This document shows positions 1 to 21,276 of a DNA stretch of 33,662 nt, one piece after another. Source of the DNA: a virus. Location: IMG/VR virus record IMGVR_UViG_3300044564_000025. One strand, 5' to 3'. The notes beneath the pieces were generated by a model. It was not told the DNA's origin, ran no database searches, and saw nothing but the letters and a program-made list of their open reading frames with translations. How positions within the stretch are numbered: the stretch's first letter is position 1; each line of letters begins with the position of its first letter. Made by a program: the position numbers and the translations under genes.

Positions 1-127
1 GACCGTGAAGGCCGTCGCGAAGACTGTCGAGGCGATGCTCGCGACCGTCTGGAGCGCCGGCCCGAGCACGGACGCGAGGACGTTGGCGATCAGGGTGAGC
101 GCCGGCTGCACGAACGTCGCCAGCGTC
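1..127. repeat. Terminal overlap, copy 1 (identical to 33536-33662)
   Basis: Direct comparison of the first 127 bases (gaccgtgaaggccgtcgcgaagactg...cgaacgtcgccagcgtc) with the last 127 bases shows identity. Confidence 0.95.
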
Positions 128-1668
128 TGGAACGCCGGCAAGAGGGTGCCGCTGACGGCGTCCGCGATGCCCTGGAGGGCGCCGCTCGCCGCCTCGGCTA
201 CGGGCGCGAACGTCTGGCCGAGGTTCCCCGCGAACTCCGAGAGCCCCTGCCCGGCGGTCTGGATCGCCGGGCCGAACGTCGCCGAGAGGTAGTCCCCTAT
301 CCCCTGCAGCGCGCCCTTGGCCGCGTCAATCGCCGGCTGGACCGTCGACGCGACGTCGGACGCGAGCGAGTTGACGGAGTTCCTGAAGTCCTCGTTCGTC
401 GCGTAGAGCGTGCCGAACACGGCGACGGCCGCGCCGACCGCTATGGCCACCGCGCCGAGCGGGTTCACGAGCAGCTGCACGGAGCCCGCCGCGGCCTCGG
501 CGCCCTCGCCCACCTGCTTCACCACGACGAGCTTTCCGATGGCGGCGGTGAGCGCCTCGACGCCGCTCGACACCTCGTCAACGACCTTGAGCGCTCCGAG
601 GGCGCCGGCGACGCCCGCCACGACGGGGGCGAGCTGCCGCATGGTGGCCAGGAGGTCCTCCCAGCCCTGGTCGAAGCCCGACGCGTCGAGCTTTGGCATG
701 CTGATGTCGATGCCGGAGAGCGCGTCGGAGACCATGTTCCACGCGCCGACGAACGCCTCGCGCAGGAGCGAGTACGCGGCCTGCCCGACCATCTGCGCCA
801 TCTGCGGCAGCGCCGCCACGATGCGCTCCCCGATGATCTTGACCCTCGGACCGACGTTCTTCGCGACGGTCTCTATAGCCTGCAGCAGCTGGTCAGTGAG
901 CTTGCCCATGTCCACGTTCTCGTTTCCGAGACCGGCGAGCCAGTTCTCCCACGCGGCCTTCGCCATGTCGATGGACCCGGCGATGGTGTTCGAGGCCTCC
1001 TCGGCGGTGTCGCCGGCTATCCCCTGCGCCTCCTGGACGTCGTGGATTGCCTGGACGACGTCTCCGAACTTGTCGATCGTGAGGTCGCCGGCCTTGCCGT
1101 TGGCCTTCTCCCATGCGTTGGCGTCGGATATCAGGCGCTCCATCTCGGTCTTCGTGCCGCCGTAGCCGAGCTTCAGGTTGTCGAGCATCGTGTAGTTCTG
1201 CTTCGCGAAGCCCTGGTACGCGTTCTGGATGTCCTCGATGTTGCTGCCGAAGACGTTCGCGTTGTCGCTCATGTCGACCATGGCCATGTTGGCACGCTCC
1301 GCAGCCTTGACCACGTCGCCGCCGAAGGACTGCTTCAGGGACGCCGAGAAGCTCGACACCTGCCGCATGTAGTCGTTCGCCGAGAGTCCGGCGGTCACGT
1401 AGGCCTGGCTCGCGTACTGCTCGACCTTGCCCGCGGCAGATCCGAAGATCTTCTCGATGCCTCCGGACAGCTGCTCGTAGTCGGAGTAGCTGTCCAGCGC
1501 CATCTTGCCCGCGGCCACGGCGCCGGCGCCGACGGCCGCGAACGCCGCGGCGGCGACCTTGCCGACCTTGCCGACGGCATCCGATATGCCGCTGGAGAGC
1601 TTCGTGTCGAAGCCCTTCATCGACGGGATGATGCTGATGTAGGCGGATCCCGCCTCAGCGTTGGCCAT
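1..1668 (-). CDS. Tail tape-measure protein, N-terminal 556 codons (gene continues across the circular junction at 33535)
   Basis: Minus-strand frame hand-translated from ATG 1668 (GGGGG run 5 nt upstream) to base 1 with no stop: MANAEAGSAYISIIPSMKGFDTKLSS...YQGFAKQNYTMLDNLKLGYGGTKTEMERLISDAN... It is missing from the ORF track because it has no stop inside the window. Its position right after the G/GT genes and its Ala/Gly-rich helical content are typical of tape-measure proteins. Confidence 0.9.
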   Translation of the reverse strand, partial: MANAEAGSAYISIIPSMKGFDTKLSSGISDAVGKVGKVAAAAFAAVGAGAVAAGKMALDSYSDYEQLSGGIEKIFGSAAGKVEQYASQAYVTAGLSANDYMRQVSSFSASLKQSFGGDVVKAAERANMAMVDMSDNANVFGSNIEDIQNAYQGFAKQNYTMLDNLKLGYGGTKTEMERLISDANAWEKANGKAGDLTIDKFGDVVQAIHDVQEAQGIAGDTAEEASNTIAGSIDMAKAAWENWLAGLGNENVDMGKLTDQLLQAIETVAKNVGPRVKIIGERIVAALPQMAQMVGQAAYSLLREAFVGAWNMVSDALSGIDISMPKLDASGFDQGWEDLLATMRQLAPVVAGVAGALGALKVVDEVSSGVEALTAAIGKLVVVKQVGEGAEAAAGSVQLLVNPLGAVAIAVGAAVAVFGTLYATNEDFRNSVNSLASDVASTVQPAIDAAKGALQGIGDYLSATFGPAIQTAGQGLSEFAGNLGQTFAPVAEAASGALQGIADAVSGTLLPAFQTLATFVQPALTLIANVLASVLGPALQTVASIASTVFATAFTV

Positions 1669-2397
1669 CGGTGCCCCCGTTCCACCAATCGTCGAAGTCG
1701 GACACCGGTATGGCGCCCGAGCCGTACGTGCGGCTGTCCCCGTTCGCGGACACGCCGGGCCGCTCTATCGGCCTCGGCAGCCTCGACCTCAGGTCGTGCC
1801 GGCTGTTGGCCTGCGCGACCTCCCAGTACACGTAGTGCGCCGTGTCCGCTATCTCGGCGAGTAGCATCGGCACGAGCGAGGGCTCCTGCCAGCGCACCTC
1901 GTCCTCGCTGTCGCCCCTCACCTCGCGGCACGTGGCCGAGTCGGGAGGGAGGTGCGACACGAAGGCGAGGAGCGCCCTCGCGGGCAGCCCCCCGCCCAGG
2001 TCGGACAGCGTGAAGCGCGTCCTCGTCATGAGGTCGTACTCGAGCGCCCCGCCATGCCCGGAGACGAGCATGGCCAGGGACGCTATTCCCCCTCGGAGAC
2101 CCCGGTCCCCTCGGAGCGTGCCTCCTGCCAGGCGCTCATGAGCGCGCTCGCGGCCTCGAAGGAGAGCCCCTTCGCGCCGGGCGCGTACCTCTCGGCGAAG
2201 TCCACGAACCACTCGGCCATGGCCACGCCGCCGCGGAACTTGCCCTCGTCCCCCTCGCCCTCGCCCTCGGCCTTGGCCTTGGCGAAGGCCTCGCCCATGG
2301 AGCGGGTCTCGTCCAGGCCGAGCTCGAGCGGCAGCGAGCACTCCTTGCCGTCGAGCTTGAATTCGAGCGCCTTGCGCTCAGTCGTTAGCTCGAGCAT
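1655..2397 (-). CDS. Tail assembly chaperone, -1 frameshift-extended form (gpGT-like), predicted
   Basis: The -1 frame (track ORF 1655..2341) is open across the 3' end of G and ends 14 nt inside the tape-measure start. A GGGGGAA run (minus strand, 2086-2092) lies directly before the G stop codon. Confidence 0.5.
2083..2397 (-). CDS. Tail assembly chaperone (gpG-like)
   Basis: 104 aa, acidic (MLELTTERKALEFKLDGKEC...AKAEGEGEGDEGK...). The ATG at 2397 overlaps the TAA of the major tail gene (TAATG). It sits between the major tail and tape-measure genes. The upstream Arg-rich part of track ORF 2083..2784 was trimmed. Confidence 0.75.
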   Translation of the reverse strand: MLELTTERKALEFKLDGKECSLPLELGLDETRSMGEAFAKAKAEGEGEGDEGKFRGGVAMAEWFVDFAERYAPGAKGLSFEAASALMSAWQEARSEGTGVSEGE

Positions 2398-2984
2398 TAT
2401 GCGGCCGCCTTCACGCCGTCGTCCACGTAGATGTAGATGCTGTTGCCGCTCGAGTCCGGGTAGCAGGACAGCGTGATGGGGAGCTTCACGGAGTCGGAGC
2501 TCACGAAGTCGATCTCGTCGACGCTCGTGACCTGCCCGTTCGGCACGACGATGAGGATGCGCGCGTTGCCGTCCTTCATGCGGAAGGCCCAGGAGCGCGC
2601 CTCGGGCATCGCGGAGTTGATTGCGAGGGTGACCTGCTCGCCGTGCTCGGTCGTCGCGGCCGTCTTGGTGACGGCGGACGTGCCGAAGGCGTGGCAGAGC
2701 GCCTCGTAGCTCATCTGCATCTCGGACCACGTGATCGTGCCGTCGAAGCTGTCGAGCAGCTTCTTCACGACGGAGCCGGACCACTCCTTGATGTCGTTGG
2801 TCGAGCGGTCGGTCTTGAGCGCCAGGCCGTCCTCGGAGACGTAGCCAGACGAGGTGAACGCCTTGTCGAGCTCCTCCGTCGCGGACGTCGGGAGCTTGGT
2901 CCCGAGGGGCGCGTCGAGCACGGCCCCCGTGGTCTTCTGGTCGGGCGCGCCGACCAGTACCTTGCTTACGTCGAGTGCAGCCAT
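2397..2984 (-). CDS. Major tail protein
   Basis: MAALDVSKVLVGAPDQKTTGAVLDAPLGTKLP...; Thr/Ser-rich beta-type sequence, about 195 aa, directly upstream of G/GT. ATG 2984 has GGGAG 5 nt upstream; the GTG at 2990 used by the track is less likely. Confidence 0.85.
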   Translation of the reverse strand: MAALDVSKVLVGAPDQKTTGAVLDAPLGTKLPTSATEELDKAFTSSGYVSEDGLALKTDRSTNDIKEWSGSVVKKLLDSFDGTITWSEMQMSYEALCHAFGTSAVTKTAATTEHGEQVTLAINSAMPEARSWAFRMKDGNARILIVVPNGQVTSVDEIDFVSSDSVKLPITLSCYPDSSGNSIYIYVDDGVKAAA

Positions 2985-3003
2985 TCGCACTCCCTTCCCC
3001 CGC

Positions 3004-3375
3004 TCAGTCGAGCAGGTTGACTTCCAGGTTCACGTTCGTCTGCCAGACGAACCAGCCGCCGTCCATGCGTCCGTAGCTGAGCACGGTCGGCACGAGGACG
3101 GCGTTCACGTGCGCGTCGGTGGGCGGCATGGTCTTGCAGGCCAGGGCCACGAGGTAGGCGTCGGTCTCGGCCGTCGCCTCGTCCGCGGCCCACACCTGCA
3201 CGGCGAAGGCCGGCGACTCGTGCGGGTAGTCGACCTCGCCGCCAGTCCTCGTGACGACGGCGAAGGGCTTCGCGCCCTCCGTCGCGGTCGTGGCGGACGC
3301 GGGCGGGTACGTCCCGACGCGCACGCCGAGGACGCCGCGCACCCAGTCGCACACGAGCTCAAGCGATGAGACCAT
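3004..3375 (-). CDS. Tail terminator / tail-completion-like protein
   Basis: 123-aa ORF between the gp10-like gene and the major tail gene; assignment is mainly positional. Confidence 0.55.
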   Translation of the reverse strand: MVSSLELVCDWVRGVLGVRVGTYPPASATTATEGAKPFAVVTRTGGEVDYPHESPAFAVQVWAADEATAETDAYLVALACKTMPPTDAHVNAVLVPTVLSYGRMDGGWFVWQTNVNLEVNLLD

Positions 3376-3378
3376 CCG

Positions 3379-3642
3379 TTACCTCCCGAGCGCCTTCTTG
3401 AGCGTCTGGTGCTTGAAGTTGCTGTTTATCGTGTGCATGTCGCCCGTGTACACGACGGCATGGGCTCGCCCGGAGCCCCCCGTCGCGCGCACGCCGTAGC
3501 CGCTCGCCCCGTACATGGAGTTGGCGGTCGCGCAGACTCGCTGCGCCTTGGCGAGGACGAGCCTCTGCACGGCCCCCGAGGTGAGCATCGACCTGGCGAA
3601 GGCGGGGCTCATCGACACCCTGTCGAGCCTCACCTGCGTCAT
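3379..3642 (-). CDS. HK97 gp10-like head-tail joining protein
   Basis: MTQVRLDRVSMSPAFARSMLTSGAVQRLVLAKAQ...; the ATG at 3642 overlaps the upstream TGA (ATGA). The Arg-rich 5' part of track ORF 3379..3873 was trimmed. Confidence 0.65.
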   Translation of the reverse strand: MTQVRLDRVSMSPAFARSMLTSGAVQRLVLAKAQRVCATANSMYGASGYGVRATGGSGRAHAVVYTGDMHTINSNFKHQTLKKALGR

Positions 3643-3980
3643 CCGTCGGCCCTCCCCAGGAGCACGTAGCATCCCCACGGGCCCCTGACCGAGCCCTCGG
3701 GGAACTCCCTGGGCTCGCCCAGGACGCGCAGCCACTCCGTGCCGTCCAGGGACACGATGGCGCCCCTGAGGTACTTGGCCCAGCCGCGCGGGAGGTGGGC
3801 GGTCGCGGTCACGCTCGCGCCCTCCGGGCGGTCCGTCGCGAGGTCCTCCGGCGTCCCGGGCGCCCAGAGGCACCCGGGTACCGAGACGGCCTCGGCGTAG
3901 CTGATGACCTCGTTTCCGAGGCGGTCGGTGCCCGAGTCGGCGCGCGGGCGCACGCGGAGCGTCACCGTCGGGGCCCTCAT
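3639..3980 (-). CDS. Head closure / head-tail adaptor protein
   Basis: MRAPTVTLRVRPRADSGTDRLGNEVISYAEAVSVPGCLWAPGT...; the ATG at 3980 overlaps the upstream TGA (ATGA). Size and position match head-closure proteins. Confidence 0.7.
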   Translation of the reverse strand: MRAPTVTLRVRPRADSGTDRLGNEVISYAEAVSVPGCLWAPGTPEDLATDRPEGASVTATAHLPRGWAKYLRGAIVSLDGTEWLRVLGEPREFPEGSVRGPWGCYVLLGRADG

Positions 3981-4351
3981 TCGGGCACCGCCGGGCTCAC
4001 GAAGCCGCACCACTCGCCGTCGAGGCCGAGGAGGCTGCGCTCCGTCTTGGTCAGGTAGATGTCGCCCGTCGGGTTCGCGTAGCTCGTGGAGCCGGAGTAG
4101 GGCGTTGCGCCCCAGGACTCCTGTGTGACGCCGAAGCCCGACTCGGAGGCCATGAGCATGCGCGTCGCCGCCTGGCACGTCACGAGCCTGAGCACGTCGG
4201 CGCCCACGCCCGACGGGTCGACGCCCCCCGACGTGCAGAGGGCGTCTATCGCGGACGAGACGAGCGGCAGCACGGCCTTGGCGCGGGACTCGTCGAGCGT
4301 GCCGCCGGGCCACAGCGCCCTCAGGTCATCGAGCGTTGCGTGCTGCGCCAT
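3977..4351 (-). CDS. gp6-like head-tail connector protein
   Basis: MAQHATLDDLRALWPGGTLDESRAKAVLPLVSSAIDALC...; the N-terminal motif pattern and the position right after the capsid gene fit a connector. Confidence 0.7.
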   Translation of the reverse strand: MAQHATLDDLRALWPGGTLDESRAKAVLPLVSSAIDALCTSGGVDPSGVGADVLRLVTCQAATRMLMASESGFGVTQESWGATPYSGSTSYANPTGDIYLTKTERSLLGLDGEWCGFVSPAVPE

Positions 4352-4364
4352 GAGTCGTCACCCC

Positions 4365-5252
4365 CTAGGCGGACGCCTTCTTGAGGACCGCGAAGCCCTT
4401 GGGGTCGAGAACGGCCCAGCTGTAGACGACCTCGGTGCGGTAGGCGATCTGGTTCAGGCGCTTGAGGTCGCCCAGGCCGTCGGGGTCGCCGGTCTCGATC
4501 ACGTCGAGGCCGAGGTCGCGGACGATGCCCCACTTGATGAGGCCGAACTGGCCGAGGATGGCCAGGACGTTGGTCGCGGTCTTGGCGAGGGAGCCGCTGA
4601 CGGTTCCGGAGGTCGCGGCGGCGATACCGTCGAGGTTGCCGACCTGCAGGTTCAGCGGGATCTCCGGGTAGAGGCGCGCGCCGGTGCTCTTGACGCGGAT
4701 CTTGCGGAGCTCGTTGGCCCAGGTCTTCGAGAGCGCGATGCCGTCGATGTCGTAGGACTCGTTCACGGCCGCGACGAGGCTGTCGAGGTCGGCGGAGGCG
4801 TCGGTGGTGGCGGTCACGGAGTTCGCGCCCGCGGTGAGCGCCGTCATGCCGGACGCGGCGGTTCCGGTGGACGGGTTGATGGCGTGGTAGATGCCGTAGT
4901 CGAGCGCGCGGCCGACCGCCGCGGAGGATGCGTCCACGATGGCGTCGATGATGCCGATCTGGGAGTCCTCGTCGGCCCACTTGACCTCGTCGGACAGGCG
5001 CACGGTGACCTGCGCCTTGTGGATCTCGCCGGGGACGGGGGTGAACGCGGCCTCGGAGGCGGACTTCTGCGCGCCCTCGCCGACGAACTCGGCCTCGGGC
5101 TCCTTGGAGAAGAGCATGTGGGTCATGTCCTTGAAGAGCACGGGCGTGCTCGGGGACAGGGTCGCGATGGTGGAGGTGTCGCGCGCCTTGGTCACGACCT
5201 GCTGCGCGACCTCCTTGGGGAGGGTGATGTTCTTGGTCTCGATTGCTGCCAT
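4365..5252 (-). CDS. Major capsid protein (HK97 fold type)
   Basis: 295 aa, MAAIETKNITLPKEVAQQVVTKARDTSTIATLS...NQIAYRTEVVYSWAVLDPKGFAVLK; GAAAGG SD 7 nt upstream; follows the scaffold gene. Confidence 0.9.
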   Translation of the reverse strand: MAAIETKNITLPKEVAQQVVTKARDTSTIATLSPSTPVLFKDMTHMLFSKEPEAEFVGEGAQKSASEAAFTPVPGEIHKAQVTVRLSDEVKWADEDSQIGIIDAIVDASSAAVGRALDYGIYHAINPSTGTAASGMTALTAGANSVTATTDASADLDSLVAAVNESYDIDGIALSKTWANELRKIRVKSTGARLYPEIPLNLQVGNLDGIAAATSGTVSGSLAKTATNVLAILGQFGLIKWGIVRDLGLDVIETGDPDGLGDLKRLNQIAYRTEVVYSWAVLDPKGFAVLKKASA

Positions 5253-5282
5253 TCGTCAGCCTTTCTCTTGGTGTTGCGTCCT

Positions 5283-5729
5283 CTAGGAGCCGAAGATCTC
5301 GCGTGCCAGGCGCGCCTTCGCGGCTGAGACGCCGTCGTCGGAGCCGCCCTTGGTGTCGAAGCGCCCGGAGTGGCCGTGCGCGCCGGACTTGGGCTTCGCG
5401 TACTCTGCCACGGCCTTGGCGTTGGCCTCCATCTCGTCCTCGGTCGCACCGAAGACGAGCGACTCGGGCACTCCGGCCGACTTGGCGACGCGACGTCGGA
5501 CCTCGTCGAGCTCCGCCTTGGCCTTGTAGCCGTCGAGCTCGGCCTTTGCCTTCTCGGCGGCCTCCCTCGCCTTCTGGAGCTCGGACTTGGACTCCTCCTG
5601 GAGCTCGTCGTAGGCCTTTGCCTTCTCGGCGTTCTCCTTGGAGCGCTGCTCCCACTTTCGGGCCATCGCCTTCCAGTCGGTCCCCTCGGCGCCCTCGTCC
5701 GGTCCCTTCTCCTCTGGCTCGTCTGCCAT
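5283..5729 (-). CDS. Capsid scaffolding protein
   Basis: MADEPEEKGPDEGAEGTDWK...ELQEESKSELQKAREAAEKAKAELDGYKAKAELDE...; charged coiled-coil-like 148 aa. ATG 5729 is preceded by GGAGGGAG. The upstream part of track ORF 5283..5870 was trimmed. Confidence 0.75.
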   Translation of the reverse strand: MADEPEEKGPDEGAEGTDWKAMARKWEQRSKENAEKAKAYDELQEESKSELQKAREAAEKAKAELDGYKAKAELDEVRRRVAKSAGVPESLVFGATEDEMEANAKAVAEYAKPKSGAHGHSGRFDTKGGSDDGVSAAKARLAREIFGS

Positions 5730-5744
5730 CTCTGGCTCCCTCCT

Positions 5745-5873
5745 GTCCCGTGCGGGACGGCCTCGGGCCGTGCGGCCCACGTTTATATGGCAGGAGGCCC
5801 CGTGCGGGGCCTCCGTGCTTGCGAAGTGTTTTGGCATGGGAAGGGCCGCATCCTCTCGGGTGCGGCCCATGCC
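5745..5873 (-). other. Cluster of four GC-rich stem-loops; three share a 4-nt loop GTGC (GCAC in the minus-strand RNA)
   Basis: gtccc-gtgc-gggac (5745-5758), gggcc-gtgc-ggccc (5765-5778), ggaggcccc-gtgc-ggggcctcc (5793-5814), and ggcatggg..gggccgca-N10-tgcggccc-atgcc (5833-5873). All lie in the 177-nt gap between ORF 5907..6302 and the scaffold gene. Confidence 0.6.
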
Positions 5874-5906
5874 GTCGTCGTTCTGTTTGCTTGCGTGCCG
5901 CGTGCG

Positions 5907-6302
5907 TCACATATCCGGGATGAAGCCCATCACGTAGCGCTTGACGATCTCCTCGGAGACCTCCTTGAGGAGCGGGTACGGCACGTCGATTCCGGCCGCG
6001 TCGAGCGTCCTCGACACGAGCGCCCACACGCGGTCGTTCTCGATTAGCCTGAAGAACTCGCGTCCCTCTTGCGTCAGGCCCGATATCTCTCCTCCGAGGC
6101 AGATTCCGCTTCCGTCCTGGAACTCTAGCGTGCTCTCGATGAGTCCGTCTGACTTGAGCCTCGCGAGCTCGCGCTTGAGCATAGCTTCGTCCCTGACGCT
6201 GATGAAGTCGCCGTAGCTCGTCGGGCCGTCGTTCGCGGAGATTATCGCGAGGACGGCTCGCATAGTGTCGTAGTCCCTTGGCATTTCAAATCTCTCAACC
6301 AT
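5907..6302 (-). CDS. Winged-helix protein, DUF2513/YjcQ-like; second gene downstream of the MuF C-terminal module
   Basis: MVERFEMPRDYDTMRAVLAIISANDGPTSYGDF...LKSDGLIESTLEF...GLTQEGREFFRLIENDRVWALV. The ATG at 6302 overlaps the upstream TGA (TGATG). Lower-GC DNA. The 5' extension of track ORF 5907..6410 was trimmed. Confidence 0.6.
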   Translation of the reverse strand: MVERFEMPRDYDTMRAVLAIISANDGPTSYGDFISVRDEAMLKRELARLKSDGLIESTLEFQDGSGICLGGEISGLTQEGREFFRLIENDRVWALVSRTLDAAGIDVPYPLLKEVSEEIVKRYVMGFIPDM

Positions 6303-6631
6303 CAGTCGAGTATTATCGGAGTCGCCACCCCATCGCGGTCTTCCCAGATGATCGTTTGGTACCACTTGTCTCCGAATTCTGGGTCCTTCAAATCGGCTTC
6401 TGACTTCCATTCCTTCTCGAAACGCTCTGCTTCGCTCTCAGGAACTATCCAGCCATATAGGCCTATCAGGTGCTGACCGGCTATGTTGAATGTGTCCCCA
6501 TCTGAGGTGTCGAAGAAGAACCGCTCGCCTCTTTGTCTGCAGAACCGGTTCATAGCTTTCACTGACCTTATCTCGTCCTTATAGACGAGATCATTTGTGT
6601 ACCGAATTCCAGACGGAAGTGAGCTCTCCAT
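6302..6631 (-). CDS. Small protein immediately downstream of the MuF C-terminal module (candidate immunity protein)
   Basis: 109 aa, acidic, Trp-rich (…FFFDTSDGDTFNIAGQHLIGLYGWIVPESEAERFEKEW…). ATG 6631 follows a GGGGGAG run and overlaps the MuF gene 3' end by 41 nt. An alternative ATG is at 6553. No family recognised. Confidence 0.5.
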   Translation of the reverse strand: MESSLPSGIRYTNDLVYKDEIRSVKAMNRFCRQRGERFFFDTSDGDTFNIAGQHLIGLYGWIVPESEAERFEKEWKSEADLKDPEFGDKWYQTIIWEDRDGVATPIILD

Positions 6632-7781
6632 TTCTCCCCCTCTCGAATCTCATGGCAGACACGATGTTCTTCGTACTTGCATTCACAATGACAACTATAT
6701 CATCCTTGAAATAGTAAAGGCAGAGCTTGTCACCTTGCCCGTACCAGTCTCCATACGCCAGCGCGTCGCAGTTATCTATAACATCATTTGCGATTTTCGA
6801 ATACCTGTCGCGGTCCTTCTTCTTCGACGGATCTATCCCGAACTCTGGTCCGTGTTTTCTTACGTGATGACCGAATCCCTTTCCCGTCCATTTAAGGTCG
6901 GAGCTCGCGAACGGAGATCCTGCCGTTCCGTTCAGTTCTATCCCGGTCGCTATCTCTTTCTCGGCCTCTGTGTACACGGTGCCGTTATGGTGCTTCGCGT
7001 TTCTAACCTTGTAAGGGGTCCACGCGAATTGGCCTTTTCCCTTGTACAGCCAGTCACTGTCCATTCCACCCATCTCGCGGGTGAGGGCGTCCATCTGTTT
7101 GCGGTCCTCGCCGAACCTTAGCCCGGTGTGGTCCTCGATGACGCCCATGCGACGCCTCATGCCGTCCGGGTCGTACCCGCTGATCTTGGTTACGCCCTTG
7201 ACGCCAGGGACGACGATGCAGTCGCACCCGTCATGGGAAGCGGCGCCTGCCGACTGCTCGCTCCTGTAGTCGAAGTCGCGTGACGCGAGCATGTAGCACC
7301 AGGAGCACGTCTCGCGTCCCGTGGGGACGCGAGCGTACCTGACGTCGTTCCTGCTGCAGTTCCTCGCCATGTTCTGCATGGCGGACCTGTGCACGTAATA
7401 TGAGGCGAGGTCTGCGCTTGTGCCCTCGTAGCCCTCCCAGTCCGGTTCATCGCCCGCTATGGCGCGGACGTAGTACCTGACCTTCTCCTCCATCTTGTCA
7501 TCGTCGATGAGGCCGTCGAAGATCTGGGCTGGGTCCGCCCCTAGCCCCTCGGCCTCGCTTATCTCGTCGAATAGCTCGGCCGACAGCGCCTGGGCCTGGT
7601 CACCGAAGACTCCGAGGCAGTCATGTATGATGCCGATCGTCTTGTCGCGCACGTCCGCGACGGGCATCTCCCTGATTCCGGGCTCTGACTCGAGGCGCGC
7701 GATGACGTAGGACTTCGCGTCAGCCTGCTGCTGCGCCAGTTGGAGTCGATACCTTGTCAGCTCCGCCTGCGTTATCTGCAA
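6591..7781 (-). CDS. MuF/SPP1-gp7-type minor head protein fused to an unassigned C-terminal domain (about residues 240-396)
   Basis: The N-terminal part carries ...VRYARVPTGRETCSWCYMLASRDF...ASHDGCDCIVVPG (MuF hallmark) and follows the portal gene. The TTG start at 7781 overlaps the portal 3' end by 62 nt, so the start is uncertain. The C-terminal part is encoded in lower-GC DNA. Confidence 0.85.
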   Translation of the reverse strand: MQITQAELTRYRLQLAQQQADAKSYVIARLESEPGIREMPVADVRDKTIGIIHDCLGVFGDQAQALSAELFDEISEAEGLGADPAQIFDGLIDDDKMEEKVRYYVRAIAGDEPDWEGYEGTSADLASYYVHRSAMQNMARNCSRNDVRYARVPTGRETCSWCYMLASRDFDYRSEQSAGAASHDGCDCIVVPGVKGVTKISGYDPDGMRRRMGVIEDHTGLRFGEDRKQMDALTREMGGMDSDWLYKGKGQFAWTPYKVRNAKHHNGTVYTEAEKEIATGIELNGTAGSPFASSDLKWTGKGFGHHVRKHGPEFGIDPSKKKDRDRYSKIANDVIDNCDALAYGDWYGQGDKLCLYYFKDDIVVIVNASTKNIVSAMRFERGRNGELTSVWNSVHK

Positions 7782-9204
7782 CCGGCGTCACCTGCCTGTT
7801 CCTGTCGAGTATCGCCTGCGCACCGGCGAGCGCCTGGCTCCTGCGCCTGTCGCTCCTGAGCTGCGCGATCTGCTCGTCGTCGTAGCCGAGCTCGCGGAGC
7901 GTCACGTCGGAGTCGGCGAGCCACGGGATGGCGCTCACCTGTTTGACCATGGCGTCGGACTGCGAGACCACGGACGGCATGGACGGGTTGCGGAAGTGCA
8001 CGGAGATGGTGCCGAGCTCCTGTGCCGCCTGGCCGTAGGAGACGTTCTCGTGGGCCGCCCACGCCATGCGGCAGAGCGACTGCGTGGACTGCTTCCAGCC
8101 GTCCACGTAGTGCTGGATGTCGACGACCGCGTCCTCCTTGGAGGCGTAGATGGCCTCGGCGGAGCTCGGGTTGTCGCTCACCACGCCGAGGGACGAGAGC
8201 GGCACGCCCGTGGAGCCCGAGAACTGGGACGCGAGCGAGCGCATGTAGTCCACGTGTGGCTGCATCGAGCCCTGGGCGAGCTGCCCGAACTGGGGCGTCT
8301 GGCCGTCCCTGGCGGGCGTCGCCGCGAAGATCGAGCCGATGTAGGCGCCGAACGGCGAGCTCTTGATCGCCTCCATCGCCTTGGGCGAGGCGTTCATGAG
8401 GAACTTCTGCGGGGCCGCGGCGAACGCGGCCGCGACGGTCATGTTGAGCATCTCGCGCTGGGCGTCGTCCACGTAGTTCATGACGGAGCGCGTGATGCGC
8501 GAGCGGCCGAACGGGTTGTCGAGCGTCGGGTGGTAGGCGACGTGCACCATGGGCGCGCGGCCCATCGAGTGCGGCGCGTACTCGGCCGACCAGCCGTCCG
8601 GGCCGTGCCTGAGCGTGATGACGCTCTCGTCCGTGAGCACGTCGACCACCGAGGGCCGGCGCACGTGGCTGTTGCGCAGGCGCTCCGTGGCCACGACGAC
8701 CATGCCGGCCGTGATGCGCCTGAGCTCCTGCGACCAGACGGCGCTCGCCGCCGTGGCCGGGTAGCCCGAGATCACGACGGGCTGCTCGCCCCTCTCGGTG
8801 TCGCCGAGCGTCACGGCCATGAAGGCGCACGCGTGGCGCAGCGACGCCGAGGCGGTCAGGTGGACGAGCTGCTTCATGGAGTTGCCGTCGAGGATGGCGC
8901 CGAGATCGTCCTCGGTGCCGTCCGCGGCGCCGGAGAGCGTGACGCCCTCGTACTGGACGCGGTCCGCCCACCAGTCCACGCACTTCGCGGCCCAGTCCAC
9001 GCGGGGGTCGAGCTTGCGCACGAGCTCCTTCTGGACGCTGATGCCGATGTCCTTCACGCGCACGTGGCCGCGGTAGTAGTCGTCGCGCAGGCGGTTCCTG
9101 GCGTAGTGCTCCCTCCACGTGTCGACGAGCCTCGCGACTGTGGCCGCGTCCTCGGGGTCGAGACCCTTGGCGCGGGCGACCTCCTGTCCGAGAGTGAGAC
9201 TCAA
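7720..9204 (-). CDS. Portal protein
   Basis: 494 aa, directly after TerL. The TTG start overlaps the TerL stop (TTGA). The sequence ...DDYYRGHVRVKDIGISV...PQKFLMNASP... resembles SPP1-type portals. Confidence 0.9.
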   Translation of the reverse strand: MSLTLGQEVARAKGLDPEDAATVARLVDTWREHYARNRLRDDYYRGHVRVKDIGISVQKELVRKLDPRVDWAAKCVDWWADRVQYEGVTLSGAADGTEDDLGAILDGNSMKQLVHLTASASLRHACAFMAVTLGDTERGEQPVVISGYPATAASAVWSQELRRITAGMVVVATERLRNSHVRRPSVVDVLTDESVITLRHGPDGWSAEYAPHSMGRAPMVHVAYHPTLDNPFGRSRITRSVMNYVDDAQREMLNMTVAAAFAAAPQKFLMNASPKAMEAIKSSPFGAYIGSIFAATPARDGQTPQFGQLAQGSMQPHVDYMRSLASQFSGSTGVPLSSLGVVSDNPSSAEAIYASKEDAVVDIQHYVDGWKQSTQSLCRMAWAAHENVSYGQAAQELGTISVHFRNPSMPSVVSQSDAMVKQVSAIPWLADSDVTLRELGYDDEQIAQLRSDRRRSQALAGAQAILDRNRQVTPVADNAGGADKVSTPTGAAAG

Positions 9205-10793
9205 AAGAACACCTCCATGTCATCGTCGGGACCTGCCGCCCCGGCCGTCCTCTGCGCGGCCCAGTGCGCTATGGCCGCTGCCTCCGCCGCGGTGGGGCTG
9301 TCGCCGCCGAAGCCCCAGCCGCCCATGCTACCGATGCGGCGGCGCGTGACGGTGAGCACGCTCTCCGTGAGCATGTCGGGGACCTCCCTGCCCTCATCGT
9401 CCGTGGCGCCGTCCGAGTACCACTCGAGCGTGCGCTCACGCACGGCGTCCAGGAACGACTGGGCGTACTCGGTGACCTCGCCAGTCCTGACGAGGTGCAC
9501 GTCCTGCGGCTCGCGCGGCCACTGGTCGAGATCCGGGTGCTCCGTCGCGCGCTCGATGCGGGCGCGCTCGGCGAGCGTCTTGGCGCCCGACTTGCCGTCG
9601 ACGGCCCACGCGGCGCCCGTCGCGTCCGATGCGATCGCGTGGACGAGGCCCGAGATGCCGTGCGTTGTCGGTCCGCAGCTCACGAGCTCGACGTGTATGT
9701 GGCCGTCTTCGAGCCTCACGGCCACGGCGACGGCGACCGTCCCTCCGTCCGGCGAGAACTTGACTCCGAACGCCGACGGGTCGCCGGACGGGGCCGCGTG
9801 AGACGCGCACGCCGCCCACTCGCCCCTTGAGACGAGAGCGTCGTGGCGCGCCGCGTCGTACCAGTAGCCCAGGTACTCCTGGGCGAAGCCGAAGGCGTCG
9901 AGCCTGCGGCGCCCGACCCTGATGGCGCGTATGTCGGCCACGCCGGAGGCGAGCGCGGGGTGGACCCTCATCCACCTCTGCTCGTCGTCCACGTCGCCGA
10001 CCTCGCCCACGCCCCACTCCCACCAGCACGTGTCAGGCGCCTTCCTGAGGGCGTCGGCGCGGAGCTCGCGGAAGCTCGTCCCGTGCGATCCCGGGCGCGT
10101 GGGCGTCCCGAGGTATACGAACTGCAGGTCGTGGAGCGCTCCCGACGTCGTGGTCGGGATGATCACCTGCTCCTGCTCGCTCGTGAGCTCCTGCGCCTCG
10201 TCGTACACGACGAGGTCGAAGGTGTAGCCGAGCGAGGCCGACTTCGTTCGCGTTGAGAAGTGGATGCTGCCCTCCGGGGCGCCCTCGTATGGGGCCTCGA
10301 AGAAGAACGACTCCTGGGCGGTCTTGGCCGACACGCCGCGGAGCCTCGCGTTTATCGCCGGGTAGCGCGCAGCGGGGTCCCTCGGCTTGGTGCCGAAGAT
10401 CGTGCGGAAGCGCCGGTACATCTCCGACGTGGTCGAGTAGTTGTGGTCGGTCCAGAGGACGGTGGCGCCCTCGGCGAGCGCGCGGTACGCGGCCCAGATG
10501 ATGCCGACGATTGACTTGCCGCACTGGCGCGGGATGGAGCCGCCGATCACCGGGTTCGCGTAGTGCGAGCCGTCCTCGGAGCGCCCTCCCATGTCCATGA
10601 GCATGGCGCGCTGCCACTCCTGGCACGGGTAGCCCATCATGGCGCCGAGCTCCGCCGCGGCCGCGCCGCGCGAGCCGGCCTCGTCGTACGGCATCGAGAG
10701 GTGGACGTTTGGCGGGAGGTACCTAGAGCCTGAGGACCTCCGCGAGCCCTCCGCCTCCGCCATAAGCCGCTCGAGCCTGCTTGCCACCGCCAT
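9201..10793 (-). CDS. terL: Terminase large subunit
   Basis: Walker A-like GGSIPRQCGKS and Walker B-like FDLVVYDEAQE, about 530 aa. The start is uncertain: ATG 10793 overlaps TerS by 71 nt, with alternatives at 10763 and 10694. Confidence 0.9.
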   Translation of the reverse strand: MAVASRLERLMAEAEGSRRSSGSRYLPPNVHLSMPYDEAGSRGAAAAELGAMMGYPCQEWQRAMLMDMGGRSEDGSHYANPVIGGSIPRQCGKSIVGIIWAAYRALAEGATVLWTDHNYSTTSEMYRRFRTIFGTKPRDPAARYPAINARLRGVSAKTAQESFFFEAPYEGAPEGSIHFSTRTKSASLGYTFDLVVYDEAQELTSEQEQVIIPTTTSGALHDLQFVYLGTPTRPGSHGTSFRELRADALRKAPDTCWWEWGVGEVGDVDDEQRWMRVHPALASGVADIRAIRVGRRRLDAFGFAQEYLGYWYDAARHDALVSRGEWAACASHAAPSGDPSAFGVKFSPDGGTVAVAVAVRLEDGHIHVELVSCGPTTHGISGLVHAIASDATGAAWAVDGKSGAKTLAERARIERATEHPDLDQWPREPQDVHLVRTGEVTEYAQSFLDAVRERTLEWYSDGATDDEGREVPDMLTESVLTVTRRRIGSMGGWGFGGDSPTAAEAAAIAHWAAQRTAGAAGPDDDMEVFF

Positions 10794-11181
10794 CGAGCGC
10801 GATCATCTCCTGTATGGTCTTTCGGTACTCGGGGGCGAGCCGCGCCACGTCGGCCGGCGCCGCGCCCTGCATCGAGTCCCATATGAGGTCCCGCAGGCCC
10901 GCGAGGCGCTGGTGGTCGGTCATGGCCGTCCCGATGGAATCGCGGCCCTGGCGGGCGTCCACGATGTGCATCAAACTGCCGACCTTGGGCCTCTCGTCCA
11001 TCGGGGCCTTCGGCTCATCGGCCGAGTCGTCGCGGAGGTGCATGTCGAGTATCTTCTTGTAGACCCCGCTCCTGCTCCTCCCGAGGTGGGAGGCCATTTC
11101 CTCGGTGGTCTTGGTCTCCCAGTTGGCCCGGATGTAGTCGAGCTCGCGCTGCGTGTAGCGTTTCGCGAAAGTCATGTCCAT
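10723..11181 (-). CDS. terS: Terminase small subunit (HTH-containing)
   Basis: MDMTFAKRYTQRELDYIRANWETKTTEEMASHLGRSRSGVYKKI...; GGAGG lies upstream of ATG 11181 (second ATG at 11175). It is immediately upstream of TerL. Confidence 0.7.
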   Translation of the reverse strand: MDMTFAKRYTQRELDYIRANWETKTTEEMASHLGRSRSGVYKKILDMHLRDDSADEPKAPMDERPKVGSLMHIVDARQGRDSIGTAMTDHQRLAGLRDLIWDSMQGAAPADVARLAPEYRKTIQEMIALDGGGKQARAAYGGGGGLAEVLRL

Positions 11182-12206: not shown

Positions 12207-12629
12207 TTATACCCTGGCGACGTCGGCCTTGCGGGACTCGACCGACGCGCGGGAGACCATGCGCTTCGTGCCGTCCCTCCAGGACTCGAGCTTCCCCTCG
12301 TCGCACAGCTGCGTCACCCTGCCACGCGTGACGCCGAGCTCGCGCGCGGCGTCGGCGGCGGTCATCGCCGGGATGTCGCCGAGCGTGCGCGACACCGCCA
12401 CGGCGATCACCCTGCCGCCATGCCTCGGCTCATGGCCGAACGACATCCGTGGCGGCTCCTTCCCCTTCATGAGGTAGTCGTCAAGGAACATGGACAGCCA
12501 GTCCGCCGCGCTCTCGACGGCATCGTCAAGGTCATCGCCGAACGTGCCCTCGCGATCGAGCGACAGCGGCTCCGCTATCACGTTCCCGTCAGGCGACGTC
12601 CAGAACTCGAACTCGCATACGTAGACCAT
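12207..12629 (-). CDS. hicB: HicB-type antitoxin with C-terminal excisionase/MerR-like HTH
   Basis: N-terminal MVYVCEFEFWTSPDGNVIAEPLSLDREGTFGDDLDDAVESAADWL... is HicB/UPF0150-like. The C-terminal MTAADAARELGVTRGRVTQLCDEGKLESW is an HTH. AAGGAG lies 6 nt upstream. It directly follows hicA. Confidence 0.8.
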   Translation of the reverse strand: MVYVCEFEFWTSPDGNVIAEPLSLDREGTFGDDLDDAVESAADWLSMFLDDYLMKGKEPPRMSFGHEPRHGGRVIAVAVSRTLGDIPAMTAADAARELGVTRGRVTQLCDEGKLESWRDGTKRMVSRASVESRKADVARV

Positions 12630-12668
12630 TGGATCTCCTTTCGCACAGACGCCCCGAAGGGGGCGGGG

Positions 12669-12839
12669 CTATCTCAGCCCCGCCTGGCGAAGAATCCTCT
12701 TAGCCGTCTGGTCGTCTATCTCCTTGTGCCTCTTGACCAGCACCCACCTGTCGCCGTTGACGAACTTGTCGTGGTTGCCGCCGTGGATGCACACGTACCC
12801 AGCCGACTCGAGCATCCTTACCAAATCCCGTCGATGCAT
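12669..12839 (-). CDS. hicA: HicA-type mRNA interferase toxin (56 aa; not in the ORF track)
   Basis: Hand-translated: MHRRDLVRMLESAGYVCIHGGNHDKFVNGDRWVLVKRHKEIDDQTAKRILRQAGLR. This matches the HicA pattern (GG.H, H.KEI, I.KQAGL). GAGAGGAGG SD before ATG 12839; TAG at 12669-12671. Confidence 0.85.
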   Translation of the reverse strand: MHRRDLVRMLESAGYVCIHGGNHDKFVNGDRWVLVKRHKEIDDQTAKRILRQAGLR

Positions 12840-12866
12840 CTGACCTCCTCTCTTTCGACATCTAAT

Positions 12867-12895
12867 ATACTAAACACATGCTTACCTATTGTCAA
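12867..12895 (-). promoter_or_regulatory. Near-consensus sigma70-type promoter in front of hicA
   Basis: Minus strand TTGACA (12890-12895), 17 nt spacer, TAGTAT (12867-12872), in an A+T-rich 75-nt gap between the late-regulator stop (12916) and hicA. Confidence 0.6.
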
Positions 12896-12915
12896 CAGGC
12901 AATTTAAACAATCGC

Positions 12916-13410
12916 TTAGCCATCCTCGGCGAGCCCCAGCCCCCTGGCCATGCGCGCGACGCCGTACGAGTCCACCACGTCCATGGCCACGCCCACGGCG
13001 TCCCTGCACCAGCGTTCGCTCATGCCGGTGCCCTCGGCGACCTCGGGCCACGTGGCGGCCGCGCAGTAGCGCCACCAGAGCACGTCGGCGTACGGCGCCC
13101 CGAGTATCGCGCCCACGCCGCCCGTGCTCTGGTCGGCCCCGTAGATCACGTCGCACGCCGCGTCGATGAGACGGTAGTCCTCCTCGATGCGGCGCCTGTA
13201 CCTCGCCTCGTAGTCCATCCTCGCGTCGGTGGCGGCCATGGCGTCGTGGGAGCCGCCGCGGCCGCGCGGTCCGTACGTCTGCGCCCTCACGCCCTCGCGC
13301 GACTCCATGGCCTTGATCGTCCTGGACGTCCTGTCCGCGTCCCTGCTGGCGTCGCGCACCGCCTCGAAGAAGTCGCGCGCGCTCCCGTTCCCGTAGTCCT
13401 CTGGTACCAC
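12916..13410 (-). CDS. Putative late-gene transcriptional regulator (sigma-70 region-4-like / ArpU-RinA-like HTH)
   Basis: C-terminal ...ADVLWWRYCAAATWPEVAEGTGMSERWCRDAVGVAMDVV resembles a region-4 HTH. It is the last gene before the packaging module. The GTG at 13410 with GGGGG 7 nt upstream was chosen as start, but this is uncertain. Confidence 0.45.
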   Translation of the reverse strand: MVPEDYGNGSARDFFEAVRDASRDADRTSRTIKAMESREGVRAQTYGPRGRGGSHDAMAATDARMDYEARYRRRIEEDYRLIDAACDVIYGADQSTGGVGAILGAPYADVLWWRYCAAATWPEVAEGTGMSERWCRDAVGVAMDVVDSYGVARMARGLGLAEDG

Positions 13411-18619: not shown

Positions 18620-19801
18620 TCAGTCCTCCCCGTTCCCCAAGATCTCGTCGAACCTCGCCGCGGCCTGCCGGTCGCGTCCGGGCATCACGTGCCCGTAGTA
18701 CCTGAGCGTCGTCGCCACGTCCGCGTGGCCCAGGCGCTCGCTCACCGTCTTCGCGTCCACGCCCGAGGCGATGAGCAGCGTCGCGTGCGTGTGCCGCAGC
18801 GTGTGGAAGCGCACCCACTTCGGCAGCCGCAGCGCCCTGGCCCGCCTGCCGAACCATCCGCTCAGGTCGTTCGGTCGCATGAAGTTGCCGTTCGTGCTGA
18901 CCATCGGCATGTTCGACGCCTTGCCCCAGCGCTCGCCCGACCACGCGAGGTGCCTGCGGATGCCGTCCGCCACCTCGGCTGAGAGCGCCACGCGGCGCAT
19001 GCCTCCGGTCTTGGTGCCGTCGTGCCGCTCGCGGGAGGCGTCCACGGTGCCGCGCACCATGAGGGTTGGCTCCTCCCCGTCGAGGAAGTCGGCGCGGCGC
19101 ATGGCGCAGACCTCGCCCACGCGGAGCCCGGTGTTGAGCGCGACCCACGAACCGAAGGCGCACACCCTGTCGCGCACGCGCCTGACCGTCGAGACGTCCG
19201 CGAATCCCTCGCGCAGCAGCGTGTCGTTGAGCGCCCTGGCCTGGATCTCGTCGAGCGCCTTGGGCCTCCTCTCGGTGCCTCCCTTGGGCAGCCTCACCCC
19301 GCGCACGGGGTTCCCGTCCGTCACGCCGAGGGCGCGCATGCGGTCCCAGAAGCCCGAGAGGAACGCCTTCTCGAGGTCGACGGTCGCCCTCGCATAGGTG
19401 GACGAGAGCGACGCGAGCAGCTCGTCGACGTCGGCGGCGGACACGTCGTCGATGCCGGACGGTGCCAGCGGCGCCGCGAGCTCGGCGCACCGCGCGTAGG
19501 CGCTCAGGGTGTTGGCCTTGGTCCCAGCCTTGCGCATGCGGCCGAGGTACGCCCGCATGAGCTCGCCCACCGTGGCATCGTCGGCCAGCTTGCGCGCCGC
19601 GTACTGGCGCCTGACCCACGCCTCGGCCTCGCCCCTGGCGTCCTCGACGGGAGTGCCAGCCGGGAAGCTGAGCTGCGGGCGCACCGCGCGCCCGGTCACC
19701 TTGCTCGTGCCGAGGTACAGGCGCACCACGAGCCTGCCGTCATCCTCGCGCACGAGCCTCGCATTGTGCGGCAGAGTCGCCACGACGTTCGACCCGCCCA
19801 T
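18620..19801 (-). CDS. Tyrosine recombinase (phage-integrase family), second copy, in the early operon
   Basis: ...NTGLRVGEVCAM..., ...FHTLRHTHATLL..., ...LGHADVATTLRYYGHV (R, HxxR, H, Y), plus a SAM-like N-terminal core-binding region. ATG 19801 has GGGGG 9 nt upstream. Confidence 0.9.
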   Translation of the reverse strand: MGGSNVVATLPHNARLVREDDGRLVVRLYLGTSKVTGRAVRPQLSFPAGTPVEDARGEAEAWVRRQYAARKLADDATVGELMRAYLGRMRKAGTKANTLSAYARCAELAAPLAPSGIDDVSAADVDELLASLSSTYARATVDLEKAFLSGFWDRMRALGVTDGNPVRGVRLPKGGTERRPKALDEIQARALNDTLLREGFADVSTVRRVRDRVCAFGSWVALNTGLRVGEVCAMRRADFLDGEEPTLMVRGTVDASRERHDGTKTGGMRRVALSAEVADGIRRHLAWSGERWGKASNMPMVSTNGNFMRPNDLSGWFGRRARALRLPKWVRFHTLRHTHATLLIASGVDAKTVSERLGHADVATTLRYYGHVMPGRDRQAAARFDEILGNGED

Positions 19802-19805
19802 CACA

Positions 19806-20949: not shown

Positions 20950-20979
20950 GCCGACTCCTCTCGAAATGGGACTATAGGT

Positions 20980-21174: not shown

Positions 21175-21197
21175 ACCGTCCTCCTTTCCACAACTGA

Positions 21198-21226
21198 ACT
21201 ATAGGCAAACTTATAGTGCTTGTAAA
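21198..21226 (-). promoter_or_regulatory. Early (cro-side) promoter overlapped by an inverted repeat (operator candidate)
   Basis: Minus strand TTTACA (21221-21226), 17 nt spacer, TATAGT (21198-21203). The inverted repeat ACTATA-N8-TATAGT (21198-21217) covers the -10 element. Confidence 0.6.
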
Positions 21227-21276
21227 GAAATTTTGCCATATTCTGTAGAATAGTTTTATTGAAGGGACGGTAAGCG

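Follow-up and report, generated by a model that had tools for sequence, protein, structure and literature searches.

In the table of Zhang et al. (2012; PMC3482391) the toxin domain Tox-ColD is given several delivery contexts, MuF-type phage head proteins among them, and the immunity proteins ImmD and Imm64. Small immunity open reading frames (ORFs) have been described downstream of MuF toxins (PMC5576092, PMC11699363). In the portion of Iyer et al. (2017; PMC5512222) drawn on here, PBECR and colicin-D-like RNases fused to MuF and portal proteins were predicted to be packaged and injected. The MuF toxins studied experimentally are of the Apk2 and Bxa types only (PMC11699363). Here such a locus is described in a stretch of viral DNA of 33,662 nucleotides (nt), IMG/VR record IMGVR_UViG_3300044564_000025, the whole of which is referred to as the window. 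The locus comprises a gene for a head protein of 396 amino acids (aa) and two small genes that follow it, ORF2 and ORF3. It is probably made up of a VG15/MuF head protein ending in a colicin-D-type RNase and of ORF2 as the inhibitor of that RNase, the two forming one mobile cassette, with ORF3 separate from it. As MuF fusions are listed by Zhang et al. (2012) and in the cited portion of Iyer et al. (2017), the locus belongs to an already described kind. The genes and domains concerned are as follows.

6591-7781, minus strand: MuF-type gene, 396 aa, its start lying within the portal gene's 3' end
7146-7781, minus strand: MuF-type head domain, residues 1-212 (Pfam VG15, PF25310, residues 3-212, E = 7.8e-40)
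6981-7145, minus strand: conserved linker, residues 213-267, GYDPDGMRRRMGVIEDHTGLRFGEDRKQMDALTREMGGM...WTPYKVRNAK, ending at the recombination junction
6594-6980, minus strand: putative colicin-D-like (Tox-ColD, BECR-fold) RNase domain, residues 268-396, with its core (residues 281-396) at 6594-6941
6852-6854, minus strand: codon of the predicted catalytic His310, aligned to colicin D H611
6657-6659, minus strand: codon of the predicted catalytic Ser375, aligned to colicin D S677
6302-6631, minus strand: ORF2, 109 aa, sharing 41 nt with the 3' end of the 396-aa gene
5907-6302, minus strand: ORF3, 131 aa, joined to ORF2 by an overlapping TGATG

The 396-aa gene after the portal gene, its overlap with ORF2 and the coupling of ORF3 were all found as an earlier sequence-only reading of this DNA had described them. 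A position directly after the portal gene in the head module of a temperate phage is that of the MuF polymorphic toxins (PMC3482391, PMC5576092). The locus further resembles these systems in its probable MuF-superfamily N-terminus, its C-terminal extension of more than 100 aa with a toxin domain known from other toxin systems too, its small downstream ORF and its swapping at a junction. It differs from them in that the N-terminus is of the actinobacterial VG15 type and not PF04233 or PF06152. The host lineage, Atopobiaceae of the Actinomycetota, is not included in the phyletic list given for Tox-ColD by Zhang et al. (PMC3482391).

The N-terminal part of the protein also matched the head-module families PHROG 13257 and 193. 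Both motifs that had been taken as a MuF hallmark from the letters are present, VPTGRETCSWC (C159, C162) and SHDGCDCIVVP (H183, C186, C188), and form the pattern CxxC...HxxCxC. When a profile of VG15-type N-termini was aligned with a small Phage_Mu_F profile using hhalign, the match was weak (probability 55%, E = 1.2e-4) and extended over 40 columns covering the Cys/His motif alone. This is weak direct support for membership of the VG15 N-terminus in the MuF superfamily. The equivalence is strengthened because the ColD domain is joined interchangeably to VG15, Phage_Mu_F and Phage_min_cap2 N-termini, and because the gene directly follows the portal gene. The actinobacterial MuF4 family was defined in the same manner by Jamet et al. 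(PMC5576092).

The sequence-only reading had proposed a foreign C-terminal part of about 155 aa belonging to no family that it could name. A distinct module is present but is about 129 aa long (residues 268-396), and it was placed as Tox-ColD of the BECR fold by profile comparison (E = 5.4e-7) and Foldseek. Separate profile searches assigned residues 3-212 to VG15 and related the C-terminal family profile to colicin D. With the C-terminus as query, a word-seeded search through 5.8 billion proteins returned nothing, as did a PDB search with the single C-terminal sequence. NCBIfam and PADLOC yielded nothing relevant for the 396-aa protein, ORF2 or ORF3. The family was found by an exhaustive phmmer search alone, which returned 184 representative homologues at E <= 1e-3. 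Protein lengths ranged from 84 to 1,875 aa and in nearly all homologues the match ended no more than about 20 residues from the C-terminus. Among 100 homologues scanned the N-terminal partners were VG15 (22), Phage_Mu_F (22), Phage_min_cap2 (15), portal (1) and XkdF protease (1). Pfam Colicin_D (PF11429) was matched by 17 of the 100, with a best E of 1.1e-6, and the PBECR models were matched weakly by three (two PBECR2 and one PBECR3). A 40-sequence family profile matched the colicin D tRNA-cleaving RNase (tRNase) structures 1v74, 1tfo, 1tfk and 5znm with E-values from 5.4e-7 (1v74_A) to 9e-6.

His310 is the sole invariant column among 39-40 diverse family members and aligns with the catalytic H611 of colicin D, within a K-H-x-x-D/E motif. 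The active-site residues of colicin D tabulated by Zhang et al. (2012; PMC3482391) are K607, K608, H611, D614 and S677. In the window protein D614 is replaced conservatively by E313 and S677 corresponds to S375, while K610 corresponds to K309 and K680 to R378. An AlphaFold (AF2) model of the domain, built on the family alignment, had a mean predicted local distance difference test score (pLDDT) of 91.7 and a predicted template modelling score (pTM) of 0.86. In the structural check proposed in the sequence-only reading, ranks 1-5 of the Foldseek search of the PDB were all colicin D tRNase chains (probability 0.97-0.99, template modelling (TM) score 0.53-0.68). Weaker matches to other BECR-fold proteins stood amid unrelated folds, with RelE at rank 6, the CdiA-CT of NC101 at ranks 14-16 and colicin E5 at rank 43. 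Since the profile match, the fold and the catalytic residues concur, the domain, with its variant basic patch, probably belongs to the colicin D branch of the BECR-fold RNases. Its activity is predicted from these features.

Colicin D (1v74, 1tfo, 1tfk, 5znm; PF11429) is thus the best match both in structure and by profile, and shares with the window domain the fold and the residue pairs H611/H310, S677/S375, D614/E313 and K610/K309. In both the domain is basic, with an isoelectric point (pI) of 8.6 here, and the partner is acidic. The differences are an identity of only about 14%, H305 and H306 in place of K607 and K608, and an extra C-terminal helix. The partner of the window domain is unrelated to ImmD by sequence, and a phage head protein takes the place of the colicin translocation domains. 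Within the actinobacterial subclade the positions of K607-K608 (window residues 305-306, nt 6864-6869) hold x-His pairs (HH, RH, AH, DH and others). The extra conserved helix (residues ~385-395, ERGRN..LT.VW.SVHK / ERGRN..LT.IWDSVHK) is also typical of this subclade. The His variant and the helix may reflect a different chemistry or RNA target.

The PBECR domains (PBECR1-5), in the portion of PMC5512222 drawn on here, are likewise phage BECR RNases with a His and Ser/Thr active site, occur in MuF and portal fusions and are predicted to be packaged and injected. The window protein differs from them in having no PBECR Pfam match, and among its 100 scanned relatives the three weak PBECR2 or PBECR3 matches stand against 17 to Colicin_D. 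That portion of Iyer et al. mentions no dedicated downstream partner family for PBECR domains. The window domain resembles PBECR in its predicted working but is closer to Colicin_D.

ORF2 encodes an acidic protein (pI 4.6) without a match in Pfam, PHROGs, NCBIfam or PADLOC. No relative of its profile was found among PDB sequences. Weak NTF2- and cystatin-like structural matches (E > 0.3) were left unused. The close homologues of ORF2, in six clusters, all lie directly after VG15-ColD genes on related phage contigs. More distant ColD-type MuF loci were taken with each of three carriers: two with VG15 (L008, L009), two with Phage_Mu_F (L010, L013) and two with Phage_min_cap2 (L011, L012). Each of the six has an ORF of 100-116 aa that overlaps the toxin gene by ~30-56 nt; the contig of L010 ends within this ORF, so that its first 39 codons are visible. 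A hidden Markov model (HMM) of the ORF2 group recognised all of these distant partner ORFs, with E from 1e-18 to 3e-5. ORF2-like genes thus occur with three MuF N-terminal families, and at every ColD-MuF locus sampled (the window, L001-L005 and L008-L015) the toxin gene is overlapped at its 3' end by a homologue of ORF2. It had been reasoned beforehand that a C-terminus found without downstream partner genes would speak against a toxin and immunity pair; the partner was present at each of these sampled loci. The same HMM did not recognise the small ORF after a JAB-type gene at L006 and L007, where no ORF2 homologue occurs. ORF2 is therefore a small downstream ORF of less than 150 aa that is specific to the type of toxin.

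A profile search with ORF2 gave at least 181 clusters at 90% identity. The matches listed are 84-147 aa long and lack Pfam domains; the few bearing a name are hypothetical proteins of Oscillospiraceae, Hungatella, Hornefia and Atopobiaceae. When three ORF2-family genes were sampled blind, two were found to overlap Phage_min_cap2-ColD genes (ColD HMM E = 2e-41 and 6e-41). The third (L016, 2808-3330) lies outside a head module, beside an integrase gene and a gene for a type I restriction-modification specificity subunit. It is overlapped by a gene of 75 aa, and the final 19 residues of that gene's product (GHERGVSEHVDRIWDKAHG) correspond to the 3' end of an actinobacterial ColD domain. From its sequence this looks like an orphan immunity gene beside a toxin remnant.

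The identities of toxin domain and ORF2 to those of the window, over five loci, were 76/73, 65/54, 43/48 and 34/29%, respectively. The MuF N-terminal domains of these loci were 95-96, 37-38, 32 and 31% identical to that of the window and did not track with ORF2. ORF2 is under purifying selection, with a ratio of nonsynonymous to synonymous substitution rates (dN/dS) of 0.17 against the related phage L003. Because of the strict linkage, the translational overlap, the acidic charge against a basic toxin domain, the purifying selection and the orphan copy, immunity is the likeliest role for ORF2. It is likely, on this genomic evidence, to encode the predicted immunity (inhibitor) protein of the ColD-like domain.

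The toxin domain and ORF2 are exchanged as a single unit. In a group of near-identical phages (L001, L003-L005) the terminase, portal and capsid proteins were ~99% identical to those of the window. The MuF N-terminal domain was 95-96% identical and the linker 84%, while identity was 76% for the toxin domain, 73% for ORF2 and 92% for ORF3. Synonymous and nonsynonymous differences between the window and L003 were counted by segment with the Nei-Gojobori method. The proportion of synonymous differences (pS) was 0.02 in the terminase gene, 0.07 in the portal gene and 0.07 in the capsid gene. It rose to 0.15 in the MuF N-terminal domain and 0.31 in the linker, was 0.77 (saturated) in the toxin domain and 0.53 in ORF2, and was 0.23 in ORF3. 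In all segments with an estimable dS, dN/dS was 0.09-0.20. In the toxin domain the proportion of nonsynonymous differences (pN) was 0.13 against a pS of 0.77, the ratio not being estimable as dS was saturated. Saturated pS in the cassette and low pS in the backbone, together with low dN/dS, indicate that the cassette alleles are old and were recombined in.

In 60-nt windows along the alignment with L003, identity stood at 0.90 or more before dropping to 0.68 at nt ~6980 (residue 268), and it returned to 0.87-0.90 at ~6320-6260, placing a breakpoint at ~6300, on the ORF2/ORF3 border. The distant phage L002 had the reversed pattern, with 37-38% identity in the MuF N-terminal domain and 36% in the terminase against 65% in the toxin domain and 54% in ORF2. 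In a protein shared by L006 and L007 (P0055) the MuF N-terminal domain was 64% and the linker 65% identical to the window. There the alignment broke near residue 263, after WTP-YKVRNAK, and the C-terminus was an unrelated domain that matched Prok-JAB weakly (E = 4e-4). At L006 this was followed by a different acidic ORF of 74 aa (5328-5552, uncalled) with a 29-nt overlap, then by a DUF2513 homologue (60% identity) and the scaffold gene (61%). As the breaks in L003 and L006 coincide, a left junction at residues ~263-268 is common to two independent exchanges. The swap at a conserved junction that had been proposed as a check was thereby found. The C-terminal extension of at least 100 aa is variable between relatives and is replaced at L006, at the same junction, by the JAB-like domain. 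Of the toxin and immunity-like cassette put forward in the sequence-only reading, the swappable colicin-D-like C-terminus and the co-diverging ORF2 stand. ORF3 probably does not belong with them, as it is kept at L006 when the toxin is replaced.

Locus L006 (3968-6751) is a prophage remnant in a bacterial contig of 228 kb and has no portal or terminase gene upstream. At the Firmicutes-type locus L011 a second, short Phage_min_cap2 fragment gene (3838-4335, 165 aa) comes after the ORF2 homologue, an arrangement suggesting that insertion of a cassette split the MuF gene or duplicated it.

The cassette differs from its surroundings in guanine-plus-cytosine (GC) content. In 400-nt windows GC was 0.48-0.52 at 6200-7000 compared with 0.67 over the whole window. 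The sliding-window computation thus found the discontinuity expected from the letters. The borders had been given as 5907-7060; the strongly A+T-rich block is narrower, at ~6265-7040, and ORF3 is shifted only mildly (GC 0.60). GC at third codon positions (GC3) was 0.57 in the toxin domain (residues 281-396) and 0.60 in ORF2, compared with 0.91-0.98 in the terminase, portal, scaffold and capsid genes. It was intermediate in the MuF N-terminal domain (0.84), the linker (0.78) and ORF3 (0.82). The compositional island is real and well above noise. Amino-acid composition was ruled out as the source of the GC dip by GC3, as the shift sits at silent sites. In all ten phage-context loci checked the GC content of the cassette was below that of its flanks, by 3 to 18 points. 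Low GC relative to the flanks is typical of mobile accessory genes.

ORF3 matched Pfam DUF2513 (PF10711) with E = 1.5e-5 and 25.7 bits, under the cut-off of 29.6 bits, and phrog_585 with E = 1.6e-6. Its homologue in L002 (29% identity, E = 5e-7) matched DUF2513 at 2e-21 and 76.6 bits. On these matches ORF3 is a putative DUF2513/YjcQ-type winged-helix protein. A YjcQ/DUF2513 gene follows the ORF2 homologue in L002 (5408-6151, one of each), L008 (1504-1857), L009 (4433-4750) and L012 (1989-2351). No such gene accompanies the ColD domain and ORF2 in L011, L013, L014 and L015. At L006 the ORF3 homologue is kept at 60% identity although the toxin domain and the small ORF are both replaced. Since it is kept when the cassette is replaced, is far less diverged and is less A+T-rich, ORF3 probably lies outside the cassette. 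By its distribution it is probably a frequent occupant of an accessory slot between the MuF and scaffold genes and not part of the exchangeable unit. Its obligate membership was rejected on its absence from L011 and L013-L015 and its retention in L006.

The Apk2 and Bxa systems (PMC11699363) likewise have a MuF N-terminus with a C-terminal toxin, a place in the head module and small protective genes adjacent. They also show that more than one accessory gene can follow such a toxin. The two-gene downstream unit, which the sequence-only reading had called unusual, is not so, as Apk2 and Bxa have two immunity proteins each (PMC11699363). Their toxins differ from the one here in being a (p)ppApp synthetase and an ADP-ribosyltransferase, and in each system one immunity protein is a modification-reversing enzyme. 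ORF3, unlike these, is of putative winged-helix type and persists through a toxin swap.

The following course of events is proposed. During late infection, or after induction, the head operon would be expressed and the MuF-RNase and ORF2 made together from overlapping frames, presumably by co-translation. ORF2 would bind and block the RNase in the virion-producing cell. If it behaves like SPP1 gp7 and other MuF proteins, the MuF domain (residues 1-212) would carry the protein into the procapsid, a route that has been predicted for MuF fusions (Zhang et al., 2012; the cited portion of Iyer et al., 2017; Jamet et al., 2017). Residues 268-396 would act as a metal-independent RNase of the colicin D/BECR type with His310 and Ser375 as predicted catalytic residues. 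At the next infection the RNase would enter with the DNA and cleave host RNA, the candidate target being a tRNA anticodon loop, as colicin D cuts those of tRNA-Arg. Host takeover or counter-defence could result, as in the portion of Iyer et al. drawn on here, or newly lysogenised competitors could be put at a disadvantage (Jamet et al.). Resident prophages or orphan ORF2 copies could give allele-specific protection, which would account for the allelic diversity and the exchange as a unit. The cassette recombines at residues ~263-268 and at the ORF2/ORF3 border.

Several observations count against this account. The window protein alone had no Pfam Colicin_D match at E <= 1, nor one to PBECR, and it is the family profile and the fold, not the single sequence, that carry the Colicin_D assignment. 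The Foldseek E-values for colicin D were only 0.03-0.05, with the TM scores of 0.53-0.68 given above. The basic pair K607 and K608, two of the five residues reported as essential, is not kept, being H305 and H306, so that substrate or chemistry may differ. For ORF2, a search with the protein and ten relatives found no Pfam family at E <= 10, ImmD and Imm64 included. Its structural model was of moderate quality only (pLDDT 68.6) and had no significant neighbour in the PDB and no match to the fold of the ImmD chains. The acidic pI of ORF2 is weak evidence, as the MuF N-terminal domain and ORF3 are acidic too. A literature search found no toxicity, neutralisation, packaging or injection experiment for any MuF-ColD protein.

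Part of this evidence would also fit other explanations. ORF2 might be an assembly chaperone, a packaging adaptor or a co-packaged cofactor of the C-terminal domain, since co-occurrence and co-divergence show a specific partnership but not its sign, and ORF2 has neither similarity to known immunity families nor a confident fold match. A small acidic ORF in translational overlap directly 3' of a nuclease domain is, however, the canonical layout of polymorphic toxins (PMC5576092). The orphan at L016 beside a decayed toxin fits immunity, whereas a chaperone would be useless without its client. Such a role for ORF2 is accordingly rated unlikely. A functional part for ORF3, whether in regulating the cassette or as a further immunity protein, is slightly less so and may be called rather doubtful. 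In its favour are the start-stop coupling to ORF2 (TGATG), the YjcQ/DUF2513 genes after the ORF2 homologues of L002, L008, L009 and the Phage_min_cap2-type L012, the intermediate GC3 of 0.82, a divergence somewhat beyond that of the backbone (pS 0.23) and the two-immunity MuF systems on record (PMC11699363). Against it, L006 retains the ORF3 homologue (60%) next to a different toxin domain and small ORF, four loci (L011, L013, L014, L015) have ColD and ORF2 but no YjcQ/DUF2513 gene, and the exchange breakpoint with L003 is the ORF2/ORF3 border itself.

It is improbable that the C-terminal domain is catalytically inert, with a structural or nucleic-acid-binding role such as has been proposed for the PBECR domain of Mu gp30, and that the island is ordinary head-gene mosaicism. 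An inactive PBECR domain occurs in phage Mu's MuF protein gp30 according to the portion of Iyer et al. (2017; PMC5512222) drawn on here, and the two lysines of colicin D are not conserved in the window domain. Yet among 39-40 members the catalytic His is the sole invariant residue, the Ser/Thr and acidic positions are retained as well, and purifying selection acts on the domain (pN 0.13 vs pS 0.77). Its small dedicated partner is always present, although an inert domain would have no use for one, and in L006 the same slot is taken by an unrelated JAB-like enzyme domain, as is seen when effectors are swapped. Least probable is divergence of the cassette by rapid diversifying selection in place, as in an arms race, instead of by recombination. 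The amino-acid identities of 73-76% in the cassette and 95-99% in the flanks would fit it, but saturation of synonymous sites is confined to the cassette (pS 0.53-0.77, against 0.02-0.07 in the flanks), and dN/dS of ORF2 is ~0.17. The cassette is also better conserved than the MuF N-terminus in the comparison with L002, and the breakpoints with L003 are sharp. Diversifying selection in place was rejected on the pS and dN/dS values from the Nei-Gojobori counts. An exchangeable pair of MuF-borne RNase and inhibitor remains the preferred explanation.

The new elements of the locus are modest. They are the Coriobacteriia phage host, the VG15-type carrier and the His-His variant of the basic patch. 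A fourth, equally modest, is the dedicated partner family: it is not ImmD or Imm64, has no Pfam entry and was not found in the MuF-toxin literature searched. More tentatively, the ORF2 family may be an undescribed, widespread immunity family for MuF-borne colicin-D-like RNases, unrelated to ImmD and Imm64, and the modified active site of the subclade may perhaps go with a different RNA target. The same tentative proposal holds that the pair could serve in recognition between phages, or between a lysogen and a superinfecting phage, beyond host takeover. A role between phages is possible because the toxin-immunity alleles swap between otherwise near-identical phages. Host takeover, competition and superinfection exclusion are candidate roles for the pair. 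MuF toxins are a large class that has barely been tested, and this locus offers a clean and compact case of the RNase type, together with a naturally occurring series of alleles. Near-identical phages that differ almost solely in the cassette make cognate and non-cognate neutralisation, packaging and role directly testable. The ORF2 family, at present unannotated, could enter catalogues of immunity proteins. Tox-ColD is extended to phages of Coriobacteriia gut bacteria and the conceptual picture is unchanged.

The window carries an exact direct repeat of 127 bp at its two ends (1-127 and 33536-33662), indicating that the contig is a circular, complete phage genome of ~33.5 kb. The head genes at 1-4300 run on into the tail genes at 26-33.6 kb, as in a circular assembly. 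The head module occupies 4.3-10.8 kb on the minus strand, in the order terminase, portal, 396-aa gene, ORF2, ORF3, scaffold and capsid. The remaining features of the module and the other genes identified in the window are listed below.

9201-10793, minus strand: large terminase gene, head module
7720-9204, minus strand: SPP1-type portal gene (Pfam SPP1_portal, E = 2.9e-9)
5730-5906, minus strand: G+C-rich hairpin cluster in the 177-nt gap between ORF3 and the scaffold gene, from RNA folding
start at 5729, minus strand: scaffold gene, head module, with its likely start at this ATG and not at 5870
4365-5252, minus strand: major capsid gene, head module
18620-19804, minus strand: tyrosine integrase gene
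21277-21918, plus strand: gene for a repressor with helix-turn-helix and peptidase S24 domains (LexA/CI-like)
23513-24565, minus strand: gene for an endolysin with SH3 domains

Tail proteins are likewise encoded in the window. The integrase, S24 repressor and endolysin genes indicate a temperate lifestyle. The sequence of ORF2 is identical to an NCBI protein from an Atopobiaceae metagenome-assembled genome. The phage is a temperate, siphovirus-like phage of an Atopobiaceae (Coriobacteriia, Actinomycetota) gut bacterium. In the INPHARED phage collection there were no matches to 4300-10800 by megablast or to the C-terminus or ORF3 by tblastn.

A hairpin cluster ahead of the scaffold gene had been noticed from the letters and was located in the 177-nt gap at 5730-5906. 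The gap folded with -86 kcal/mol compared with a shuffle mean of -69.3 (z = -3.83), and none of 200 shuffles was as stable. It contains four stem-loops, two of which have GGGCCGCAC in common, and no further copy of GGGCCGCAC occurs elsewhere in the window. The hairpins have no T-tracts on the coding (minus) strand and are therefore not a classical terminator. Intrinsic terminators and promoters were scanned for around the island; their counts were close to those expected from shuffles, and none lay on the coding strand. The cluster could be an RNA-stability or processing element within the head operon.

A second strong low-GC island (GC to 0.48) lies at ~20800-21600, at the boundary between the integrase and repressor genes, upstream of the repressor gene and extending into it. 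The GC content dips less strongly at 12600-13000, 23000-23400 and 1000-1400. Such stretches may be additional accessory or regulatory regions.

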